Source: a virus (lineage: Duplodnaviria; Heunggongvirae; Uroviricota; Caudoviricetes). From it: DNA of 5,041 nt. Below, one piece after another: positions 1,574 to 2,086 of the stretch (its first letter is position 1; each line of letters begins with the position of its first letter). Where the stretch lies: IMG/VR virus record IMGVR_UViG_2585427777_000011, positions 1-5,041 of that record. One strand, 5' to 3'. Position numbers and translations under genes: made by a program. The notes beneath the pieces are model-generated. The model made no database searches, was not told the DNA's origin, and worked only from the letters and a program-made list of their open reading frames with translations.

Positions 1574-1638
1574 ATGGCAGTAAGCTATGGGAGGCTGCCT
1601 TGATTGATTTTAGCAAACTGATTAGGGAGTTGCGACTC

Positions 1639-1734
1639 ATGATTAGTCAATTACCAAACTGGAAATTTTTGCTGGTCTGGAGCATCCCTTTTTTATGGGT
1701 AGTATCCCAGTTAATTGTGGCAATTAAGGGGTAG
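1639..1734 (+). CDS. Candidate small hydrophobic peptide (31 aa, MISQLPNWKFLLVWSIPFLWVVSQLIVAIKG)
   Basis: ATG at 1639 is preceded by AGGGAG (1624..1629) at 9-nt spacing. It has a single predicted TMD. Its TAG stop (1732..1734) lies 2 nt before the next ATG. The longer ORF-track version from GTG 1522 runs through the terminator hairpin and is not credible. Confidence 0.3.
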   Translation: MISQLPNWKFLLVWSIPFLWVVSQLIVAIKG

Positions 1735-1736
1735 CT

Positions 1737-1868
1737 ATGTCAGACAAACTCATAACGCCGGCAAAGGTCCTGTGTGTGATTGTCGGTATTTCATTTTCAC
1801 TAATGCTGGTTGCTCTTTTTCTGTCCCTCGCCTGGGTGATGTTGTCTTCGTCGGGGCTGCTGGGGTGA
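1737..1868 (+). CDS. Candidate small membrane protein (43 aa, MSDKLITPAKVLCVIVGISFSLMLVALFLSLAWVMLSSSGLLG)
   Basis: ATG at 1737 is preceded by AAGGGG at 5-nt spacing. A charged N-terminus (D3, K4, K10) is followed by one about 25-residue TMD. The stop TGA (1866..1868) overlaps the next start as GTGA. Confidence 0.4.
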   Translation: MSDKLITPAKVLCVIVGISFSLMLVALFLSLAWVMLSSSGLLG

Positions 1869-1987
1869 CAGTGACTGATGACATCAGCAGAGCGCTGGCT
1901 TTTGCTATTAAGTGGGTGGCTGTTGGTATTGCTGTGTCTCCGATGCTGTATGGGCTGGCAAAACTGGTCATTGCGCTGAAATCGTGA
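1865..1987 (+). CDS. Candidate small hydrophobic peptide (40 aa, GTG start; VTVTDDISRALAFAIKWVAVGIAVSPMLYGLAKLVIALKS)
   Basis: GTG 1865 overlaps the upstream stop (GTGA), consistent with translational coupling. The peptide is similar at amino-acid level to the next ORF (RALAFAIKWVAVGIAV versus [16 protein letters not shown]) while the nucleotides have diverged. The ORF-track version from TTG 1715 has an implausible N-terminus overlapping ORF 1737..1868. Confidence 0.3.
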   Translation: MTVTDDISRALAFAIKWVAVGIAVSPMLYGLAKLVIALKS

Positions 1988-1998
1988 ACTTTAAAAAG

Positions 1999-2085
1999 AT
2001 GAGTGCTGAACTTATTCGGGCAATGGCATTTGCCATTCGTATTGTGGCCATTGCTGTTCTGGTCTGGGCAATCCGTTGGTGGTGA
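1999..2085 (+). CDS. Candidate small hydrophobic peptide (28 aa, [28 protein letters not shown]), paralogous to 1865..1987
   Basis: ATG at 1999 has only a weak purine-rich stretch upstream. The peptide is a basic amphipathic/hydrophobic helix. Its TGA stop (2083..2085) is 1 nt before the Rz ATG at 2087. Confidence 0.3.
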
Positions 2086-2086
2086 T

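Follow-up and report, generated by a model that had tools for sequence, protein, structure and literature searches.

In Escherichia coli K-12 DLP12 and Qin, and in most Enterobacteriaceae loci surveyed here, the i-spanin gene Rz follows the endolysin gene R directly with a 4-nt overlap, the normal order according to an earlier note on the present DNA that was made from its letters alone. The R stop also overlaps the Rz start in phage lambda, and this overlap is the ancestral layout of the R-Rz junction. What, then, are the four small open reading frames (ORFs) that part the two genes in IMG/VR virus record IMGVR_UViG_2585427777_000011, positions 1 to 5,041? This whole stretch of 5,041 nt, called the window below, comes from a lambdoid E. 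coli prophage, of which it forms the late-region lysis cassette, and the ORFs (o1 to o4, all on one strand) occupy its positions 1600-2085, between R and Rz. Two of them, o3 and o4, are established as genes, o1 is probably one, and o2 is probably a gene under relaxed constraint. On balance we favour the view that they are an array of four independent, mobile late-operon genes for inner-membrane micro-proteins, which would act as accessory modulators of lysis.

Four small reading frames between R and Rz

The four ORFs had been reported as 31, 43, 40 and 28 codons long and were found at 1639-1734, 1737-1868, 1865-1987 (from a GTG) and 1999-2085, respectively (Table 1). Each has its own start and Shine-Dalgarno sequence. 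The stop codon of o1 (TAG, 1732-1734) is followed after a 2-nt gap by the ATG of o2 at 1737, the stop of o2 and the start of o3 overlap as GTGA (1865-1868), and the TGA of o4 (2083-2085) is separated by a single t from the ATG of Rz at 2087 (TGAtATG); these three links had been recognised before, and an 11-nt spacer between o3 and o4 is to be added to them. The peptides had also been described as resembling transmembrane domains (TMDs). This is borne out by their best Kyte-Doolittle means over 19 residues, which were 2.19, 2.87, 1.90 and 2.21 for o1 to o4, compared with 2.97 for the Rz TMD, and by mean Eisenberg hydrophobicities over 18 residues of 0.68-0.85, compared with 0.75 for TMD2 of the pinholin. 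AlphaFold2, run with family alignments, gave a single continuous helix for o3 (predicted local distance difference test, pLDDT, 94) and for o2 (pLDDT 86).

The block was compared with 2000 dinucleotide shuffles of itself, which preserve its composition. The shuffled sequences held a mean of 0.5 forward transmembrane (TM)-like ORFs of at least 28 codons, and four or more were reached in 0/2000; ORFs covered 94% of the block as observed and 15% on average after shuffling. Since the shuffles never produced four TM-like ORFs, composition does not explain the pattern. A dip in GC content to about 40%, against 55-58% in the flanking genes, had been claimed for the block; the dip is real and about half as deep, positions 1575-2086 having a GC content of 46.7% (0.467; 0.39 in o1 and 0.49-0.50 in the other ORFs) and the flanks values of 0.551 (R), 0.510 (the Rz part) and 0.571 (the J-like gene beyond it).

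The encoded peptides are under purifying selection, which is strong in o3 and clear in both o4 and the core of o1 but weak in o2. The o3 comparison takes in Salmonella copies at a proportion of synonymous differences (pS) of ~0.6; the pooled ratio of non-synonymous to synonymous change (dN/dS) was 0.13 in the annotated frame and 1.2 and 10.8 in the others, and the distinct changes comprised 53 synonymous and 30 non-synonymous ones, where 29% synonymous were expected (p = 6e-11). For o4 the corresponding values were 0.33 in the annotated frame, 0.62 and 1.9 in the others, and 15 synonymous against 17 non-synonymous changes (p = 0.006). The whole o1 ORF gave a pooled dN/dS of 0.48 in its annotated frame, and in its TM core (24 codons, 5 sequences) 10 distinct changes were synonymous and 8 non-synonymous (p = 0.005). 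A similar ratio, 0.46-0.48, was obtained for o2 from 29 synonymous and 57 non-synonymous distinct changes; the latter were more conservative than random in the annotated frame only (BLOSUM62, p = 0.014; hydropathy, p = 0.04). Taken across the ORFs, non-annotated frames gave pooled dN/dS values of 0.62-1.3, rising to 10.8 for o3. Among 26 aligned protein variants of o2, all from E. coli, most of them 43 aa long and with identities down to 62%, 28/43 positions were invariant or at least 90% conserved. The o2 stop is at the same position in 19/19 distinct DNA variants, and its Shine-Dalgarno sequence is kept across three different upstream contexts.

The third and fourth peptides had been called paralogues whose DNA has diverged under selection on the protein, and both parts of this statement hold. 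Their local alignment scored z = 5.0 against shuffles (z = 18 for their full-length relatives), and their aligned core shows 55% DNA identity with a pS of 0.73 and a proportion of non-synonymous differences (pN) of 0.35. Both are N-truncated versions of a family of 50-60 aa with the full-length pattern M-x-KYKR-x-LLRL-x-MKNGLE-x-x-AP...[RS]A-x-AFAI[KR]-x-VA..., which ends in ...LYGLAKLIIALKS or ...(I/V)RWW, RWW recurring in distant members. The full-length 60-aa form of o3 (o3L) occurs in O157:H7 and Salmonella, and a full-length 50-aa form of o4 in three surveyed loci (L043, L051 and L066). Short forms with an ATG start also occur naturally, in the o3/o4 family (for example P0191, on 56 contigs) and for o1 behind the antirepressor gene ant (L002, L007 and L181).

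The start of o1 had been placed at ATG 1639. TTG 1600, which gives 44 codons and has GGGAGG as a Shine-Dalgarno sequence 5 nt upstream, is probably the true start, to judge from its relatives. The N terminus read from it (IDFSKLIRELR) is homologous to the start of a 45-aa relative that occurs as a single gene and begins at the equivalent codon with GTG behind AAGGAG; GTG also stands at the equivalent position in L183, and a 44-aa entry exists in the databases for o1 of enteropathogenic E. coli (EPEC) E2348/69. The 45 positions of phrog_6632 cover the N-terminal extension (E = 1.3e-12 for the long form; E = 1e-29 over 45/45 profile positions for the single-gene relative), and homology between o1 and the 45-aa version scored z = 13.8.

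For o3, the Prokaryotic Genome Annotation Pipeline (PGAP) chose CTG 1832 in the identical locus of strain JJ1887 (L001, 6388-6543, corresponding to window positions 1832-1987), which yields 51 aa and overlaps o2 by 37 nt. This start appears spurious, lacking support from homologues, and GTG 1865 or 1871 fits better. Several PHROG profiles, such as the 90-position phrog_3246, likewise hold spurious N-terminal extensions that stem from over-long ORF calls. In JJ1887 o2 (WP_001280935.1), o3 in its 51-aa form and o4 (WP_032140280.1) are annotated as hypothetical proteins and o1 is absent.

Three further candidates were rejected. A 123-aa ORF on the minus strand (1750-2121) had no PHROG or Pfam match, the constraint lies in the plus-strand frames, and the ORF is regarded as an artefact of T-rich coding sequence. 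An origin of o2 as a duplicated Rz TMD was considered because of a 'VLCV' similarity and the shared CTGTGTGTG, and the local alignment did not exceed z > 3 against shuffles. A relationship between o1 and o3 reached z = 3.4 only and is taken as TMD composition.

Three families in a modular interval

The R-Rz interval was compared across several sets: 8 E. coli or phage loci with annotation, 80 loci that the R protein picked out of IMG/VR, loci of divergent homologues, 80 that Rz picked out of species-representative genomes, and 7 Shiga toxin (Stx) phage loci. Many in the Rz-retrieved set were lambda sequence from non-enteric assemblies. The lambda Rz regions among them were mutually identical (69% identity to the query) and came, mostly on short contigs, from assemblies labelled Pseudomonas, Kitasatospora, Brevibacillus, Bacteroidetes and others (L100-L123 and similar), which looks like contamination with lambda control DNA.

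The four peptides fall into three families: o1 (phrog_6632), o2 (phrog_4906), and o3 with o4 (phrog_1115, 3246 and 4493). All four matched PHROG families by hidden Markov model, all of them of 'unknown function'; between o2 and o3/o4 hhalign gave a probability of 1.4%. Where the interval is not empty, its content varies greatly. It may hold a single gene, either one 45-aa o1-type or one 50-aa o4-type gene, or two, as o3L-o2 (in O157:H7 and many others), o3L-o4 or o1-o2. With ant it is found as ant-o2 in Stx phages such as Min27 and BP-4795, as ant-o1-o2, and as ant-o1-o2-o3-o4 in phage PhiR5_1. The arrangement in the window looks as if an o1-o2 module like that of L003 had been joined, at AGTRACTGATGAC, to an o3-o4-Rz module of the kind seen in L065.

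The modules also change neighbours. Directly upstream of Rz, o3L was found behind a P21-type holin, an HP1-type holin, and a lambda-S-type holin with a glycoside hydrolase family 19 (GH19) lysin. A unit made up of the terminator described below, a short upstream ORF (uORF), o1 and o2 moves as a block and lies directly upstream of a lambda-S-type holin in L180 and directly downstream of another lysis cassette in L183. Most copies are immediately beside lysis genes, in four different cassette types, and the families persist without a following Rz in L093-L096, L180 and L183.

Further configurations were seen in single loci. An o3-type gene follows tail-fibre assembly genes in Salmonella L093 and L094 (2501-2701), where in L093 two terminators bracket the gene, and a tandem pair of o3-type paralogues (47 or 64 aa, plus 55 aa) lies beside a DUF1353 or Bro-N gene in L095 (2356-2668) and L096 (165-528). 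In L021 (3158-3853) an in-frame fusion joins o3L, at a point inside its TMD, to the C-terminal portion of a tail-fibre-assembly-like protein; this is another prophage deletion scar. The slot between endolysin gene and Rz has been filled repeatedly and independently, in other species too. It holds unrelated small TM ORFs in L133 (2397-2504) and L173 (2310-2504), among them a type of 31-33 aa with a 4-nt overlap with the Rz start, two further peptides of ~50 aa unrelated to o1-o4 in L006 (1314-1466 and 1631-1780), and in L170 (2244-2456) a 70-aa DUF7940 protein that carries the PHROG label 'holin'.

Positions 1445-2100 recur at 100% identity in many genomes of E. coli sequence type 131 (ST131), JJ1887 among them, in EPEC O127:H6 and in other lineages. 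At least 80% of 1560-2100 is carried by 589/5,426 complete E. coli genomes, and up to 1,751/5,426 match some part of it, some of these matches covering only the Rz start. In phages, o2 was matched at full length in 276/276 records, mainly of Stx phages and mainly unannotated there, and the peptide was seen in E. coli and Shigella phages only. Homologues of 43-44 codons lie between ant and Rz in classical Stx phages, namely Min27 (L184, 1501-1629), Stx2a_F451, BP-4795 and many Stx1a/Stx2a phages (further loci L185, L186 and L188-L190). The o3/o4 family comprises 121 clusters at 90% identity, from Escherichia, Shigella and Salmonella prophages only. An exhaustive profile search at E up to 1e-3 yielded 24 representatives among 1.84 billion proteins and an alignment scan of GTDB species representatives gave no true relative, so that o3/o4 is a narrow Escherichia/Salmonella family. 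Database entries are mostly named 'hypothetical protein' or 'uncharacterized protein'; one UniRef entry, a 60-aa o3 form, is called 'Transmembrane protein', and a few others are labelled 'membrane protein', 'prophage protein' or 'putative bacteriophage protein', with no function stated.

Expression signals and competing explanations

An intrinsic terminator just ahead of the block had been described and was found, with its stem at 1535-1567 followed by a T run. This stem is conserved and shows some compensatory changes towards its top; the terminator moves with the small genes into other contexts (L180, L183, L092 and L098) and is present upstream of every copy in all contexts. An insensitive, consensus-based scan found no plus-strand sigma-70-like promoter in 1300-2300, nor ahead of the other copies examined. 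A 9-codon uORF, conserved in L180 and L182, links the terminator to o1, and analogous 8-codon uORFs (MCREACSL and MGREVLSL, each followed by a stop) precede full-length o3/o4 genes with a GTGA overlap in L043, L092 and L098. Translation of the uORF is doubtful because its ribosome-binding region falls in the terminator stem. The o1-o4 peptides were absent from the supplements of Sakai O157:H7 ribosome profiling, in which uninduced cultures would not express late genes anyway.

The ~130 nt at 1445-1573 move together with the small genes and Rz, also where the endolysin is of the GH19 type. They are a conceivable source of a small RNA (sRNA) derived from the 3' untranslated region (UTR); the spacer between R and the terminator had no Rfam match to a structured RNA or sRNA, and its small hairpin (GGAT...ATCC) is conserved with too little covariation in the alignment fold to be called a structured RNA.

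In the explanation that we favour, each peptide of 28-44 residues would be essentially one inner-membrane helix, inserted N-in, and mobile modules would have been stacked by recombination into the R-Rz junction of a phage-21-type lysis cassette. The upstream terminator and the lack of a detectable promoter suggest that the genes would be silent in the lysogen and transcribed only by Q-antiterminated late polymerase, at lysis time. Translation would start from the strong Shine-Dalgarno sequence at TTG 1600 and be passed along the chain by close coupling into Rz. The role is probably an accessory one at membrane level, tuning the firing time of holin and endolysin or the action of the spanin, possibly by gradually disturbing the energised inner membrane towards the end of infection; because holin triggering and release of signal-anchor-release (SAR) endolysins respond to membrane potential, a build-up of helices could advance or delay the lysis clock. 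As o3L and the o1-o2 unit stand beside several holin and endolysin types, the function would be tied to lysis and not to a particular holin or endolysin, which points to an action on the membrane itself or to a host or spanin partner. The four peptides are not essential lysis components. Lysis-timing modulation was also the first of three readings in the earlier note, and position together with the presumed late expression makes it the most plausible of them; the membership of an antiholin or LysA family that it had suggested was not borne out.

The last of those readings, a single decayed multi-TMD gene of ~149 codons split by three frameshifts, drew on four consecutive TMD-like segments on one strand. 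The note itself had named homologous loci with one long ORF as its mark; no such ORF occurs in ~190 related loci or in the protein database, and the sole fusion is an 83-aa product of an o2-o3 frameshift (P0170) on a single 1.3-kb contig. The peptides belong to three families, each frame is separately constrained and has its own start and Shine-Dalgarno sequence, and an o1-o4 concatenation matched nothing in Pfam or PDB. Pieces that stand alone or in reversed order (o3-o2) elsewhere exclude the reading, and we give it practically no credence. Type I toxin-like peptides, held in check each or jointly by an antisense RNA, were the remaining suggestion. The peptides are hydrophobic and, at 28-44 aa, within the size of such toxins (<60 aa), the prophage type I toxin HokW aids lysis by Sp5 (PMC8621323), and a minus-strand promoter-like site with 9/12 matches lies at 1743-1714. 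That site is at chance level, with 1 found and 1.1 expected, and the searches that would reveal a toxin locus were negative: the consensus scan for a plus-strand promoter, Rfam for an antitoxin or Sok-like RNA (E up to 1) and Pfam for Hok or another toxin. The genes are, moreover, packed in an operon rather than forming a stand-alone locus with a long 5' UTR. The likeness is therefore physical only, and the idea is largely refuted and highly improbable.

A different possibility is that the ORFs serve as a translational relay, in which ribosomes would keep the mRNA open and reach Rz after insertions had broken the R-Rz coupling, the peptides themselves having little or no function. Its starting point, an R stop that overlapped the Rz start, is the ancestral state, and the present chain of stops and starts does lead to Rz. 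The last codons of o4 (TGGTGGTGA) double as the ribosome-binding region of Rz, and CGN TGG TGG TGA, the end of both o4 and the single o1-type gene, serves as that region in both, which explains why these otherwise unrelated types share the ending ...IRWW. The overlap suggests coupling into Rz, and the weak constraint on o2 also fits a relay. Coupling alone, however, cannot account for the constraint at the peptide level in o3, o4 and the o1 core or for the copies that persist without a downstream Rz, and 28 of the 43 positions of o2 are conserved as described; we consider a relay improbable as the whole explanation. The main rival holds that the genes are moron-like cargo unrelated to lysis, gathered at a permissive recombination hot spot of the late operon, and that they might regulate a membrane protein of the host, keep out superinfecting phage or change host physiology. 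It fits the presence of ant in the same slot in many phages, the o3L copies after tail-fibre assembly genes in L093 and L094 and, in L095, at the prophage end by host genes, the movement of modules between unrelated positions, the lower GC content of the block, and the common role of small membrane proteins as regulators of larger ones, according to a review (PMC12648545). Terminators flank o3L in L093, as in a moron, and precede all copies, yet no promoter-like site was seen before any of them in the consensus scan, so that expression in the lysogen is not expected. Most copies adjoin lysis genes of four cassette types, and none of the peptides matched a PADLOC defence family, a defence system being rejected on this ground. 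Cargo is a possibility to be taken seriously, and a rather unlikely one.

Several points weigh against lysis modulation. K-12 DLP12, Qin, phage lambda and most species loci surveyed do without the peptides, which are thus dispensable for lysis. The slot also takes ant, which is not a lysis gene, and is therefore a general insertion hot spot in which association with lysis genes is a weak argument; o3L sits moron-like after tail-fibre genes and at a prophage end in the loci just named. The variety of adjacent holins and endolysins speaks against any one of them as a specific partner. Constraint on o2 is weak and missed significance in a conservative binomial test (p = 0.13), the same test on the whole short o1 ORF gave p = 0.3, and selection on o1 was tested with 5 sequences only. 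A negative result in so insensitive a promoter scan is no proof that promoters are absent. Finally, some copies are decaying: o1 has a stop in L003, o2 or o3 a frameshift in L005 and L182, and the o2 start has changed from ATG to ATA in L183. Such decay is expected of accessory prophage genes.

Known relatives, surroundings and meaning of the locus

No known family of holins, antiholins, releasins or LysA proteins includes any of the four peptides. Holin profiles of Pfam, NCBIfam and PHROG matched neither them nor their full-length relatives, and did match the holin of the window. A TMD is present, as in holins, but the C termini of 2-8 residues (IKG, SSSGLLG, KLVIALKS and RWW; charge 0 to +2) lack the charged cytoplasmic tail, basic in most cases, of the holin type. 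Classical lambdoid antiholins (S107 and S21-71) are alternative starts of the holin gene itself, whereas o1-o4 are separate genes more than 1.3 kb downstream of it. P2 LysA, encoded after the endolysin gene and ahead of lysB, which is Rz-like, is reported to affect lysis timing and has ~141 aa and four TMDs; here there are four ORFs of three families, and no homologous locus has a long ORF. The peptides, of 28-44 aa and without a large soluble domain, gave no Pfam match at E up to 1 to DUF2730, the releasin family with its N-terminal TMD and ~70-aa cytoplasmic domain. They also lack a periplasmic coiled-coil domain, a lipobox and matches to PF03245 or PF06085, so that they do not qualify as spanins; the gene downstream is Rz.

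Small membrane proteins that modulate lysis have been described elsewhere: BSPM4 ORF52 (PMC11657625), P1 LydD/LydE (PMC9025707), HokW (PMC8621323), Mu gp25 (PMC9239132) and LambdaSo Lcc6 (10.1101/2024.01.23.576932). The lyz-lydD-lydE genes of P1 resemble the present arrangement in that a SAR endolysin gene is followed by small overlapping genes on one late transcript, and LydD, with 84 aa and two predicted TMDs, acts as a pinholin (PMC9025707). No sequence relationship was found; the window peptides have a single TMD and nothing like the basic C-terminal tail of LydD, and the window has a pinholin gene upstream of R and, in place of lydD and lydE, up to four genes of three families and then Rz. 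The Mu releasin gp25 is likewise a small membrane-anchored non-holin encoded near a SAR endolysin, which it helps to leave the membrane, but it has 99 aa, an N-out/C-in topology and a 73-aa acidic cytoplasmic domain (DUF2730; PMC9239132), while the window peptides have almost no extramembrane part. Their family also accompanies a GH19 endolysin, taken as soluble (L092), a setting unlike that of gp25. Lcc6, a 65-aa single-TMD protein of unknown mechanism, shows that pinholin/SAR-endolysin systems can need further small membrane factors (10.1101/2024.01.23.576932). Compared by description, it differs in its build, an N-terminal TMD with a 43-aa tail predicted to be cytoplasmic, and in being essential and encoded far from the lysis cassette, whereas the window peptides are dispensable and lie inside it. 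HokW of Sakai prophage 5 is a small hydrophobic inner-membrane peptide of a lambdoid prophage that assists phage lysis (PMC8621323); it is expressed from a promoter of its own as a long regulated mRNA, with sokW as antisense RNA, and none of these features is evident in the window.

The PHROG families 6632, 4906, 1115, 4493 and 3246 already catalogue the peptides as phage proteins, without function, context or a link between families. No paper describing o1-o4 was found by full-text searches, and the matching passages of a survey of Stx-phage lysis cassettes (PMC8136144) hold no mention of them.

Table 1. Features of the lysis region in window coordinates.
Feature	Position	Strand	Description and best matches
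Phage-21-type class II holin (pinholin family)	3-218	+	71 aa; Pfam PF04971, E = 9e-33
DUF1327/YdfR gene	223-567	+	
Convergent ORF	533-805	-	90 aa; phrog_2411, E = 1e-58
Endolysin R, phage lysozyme	911-1444	+	SAR-like N terminus (MNTKIRYGLSAAVLALIAAGAPAP); PF00959, E = 9e-24; phrog_7 endolysin
Conserved non-coding spacer after R	1445-1534	+	90-93% identity in many Stx/lambdoid phages; recognisable in Salmonella loci
Intrinsic terminator	1535-1573	+	15-pair stem (1535-1567) and T run
uORF, 9 codons (MAVSYGRLP and stop)	1574-1603	+	holds GGGAGG Shine-Dalgarno; TGA overlaps TTG 1600 start (TTGA)
o1	1600-1734	+	44 aa from TTG 1600, probable start (31 aa from ATG 1639); amphipathic N-terminal helix and one TMD; phrog_6632
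o2	1737-1868	+	43 aa; one strongly hydrophobic TMD; phrog_4906, E = 4.5e-21
o3	1865-1987	+	40 aa from GTG 1865, or 38 aa from GTG 1871; phrog_1115, phrog_3246, phrog_4493, E = 6e-25 to 5e-17 (best 6.4e-25)
o4	1999-2085	+	28 aa; o3 paralogue, '...IRWW' C terminus; phrog_4493, E = 3.8e-6
Rz, i-spanin gene, 5' part	2087-2288	+	67 codons; from translation

The genes around the block complete the picture of a phage-21-type cassette. PGAP names the holin of the identical JJ1887 locus 'class II holin family protein'. The DUF1327/YdfR gene and the phrog_2411 ORF, both of unknown function, are an insertion that parts holin from endolysin, and their 3' ends overlap by 35 nt. The N terminus of R appears to be of the SAR kind, judging from its residues and from passages on R21-like endolysins of Stx phages in PMC8136144. 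Rz is intact in JJ1887 (164 aa); in the window it breaks off after 67 codons, at ~2288, and continues in frame into a lambda J-like tail-tip gene, which reaches the end of the window (5041). This Rz-J junction was found in 0/5,426 complete E. coli genomes. In the ST131 strain 4/1-1 both halves of the fusion lie in one prophage, 18.4 kb apart, which makes the window a deletion derivative of this prophage, without Rz1, the terminase, the head genes and most tail genes.

Known only as PHROG families of unknown function, the peptides are best grouped with the small membrane proteins that play an accessory part in phage lysis cassettes. Where a phage-21-type cassette occurs in E. coli and Salmonella prophages, its R-Rz junction regularly holds one to four conserved single-helix micro-genes. 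Their annotation is due for correction: PGAP omits o1 and gives o3 the seemingly spurious CTG start, and most Stx phage records leave out o2. No parameter of the lytic cycle matters more for fitness than the timing of lysis, which in Stx phages also governs toxin release, and the classical scheme of holin, endolysin and spanin has recently been extended by small membrane factors such as Mu releasin, LambdaSo Lcc6 and BSPM4 ORF52. Should the peptides be cargo instead, they would be a clean case of micro-genes shuffling in a late operon; if they modulate lysis, they would add a new and easily tested layer of control in medically important phages. A bolder and more speculative form of the lysis explanation, which we regard as unlikely, would see in them a previously unrecognised class of mobile modulators of the lysis clock or the spanin gate, independent of holin type and made only from the antiterminated late transcript, that set the time of host lysis. 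If that were true, both the moment and the quantity of Shiga toxin and phage release would also depend on o2, which lies between ant and Rz in many Stx phages, and on o3L-o2 in O157:H7 prophages.

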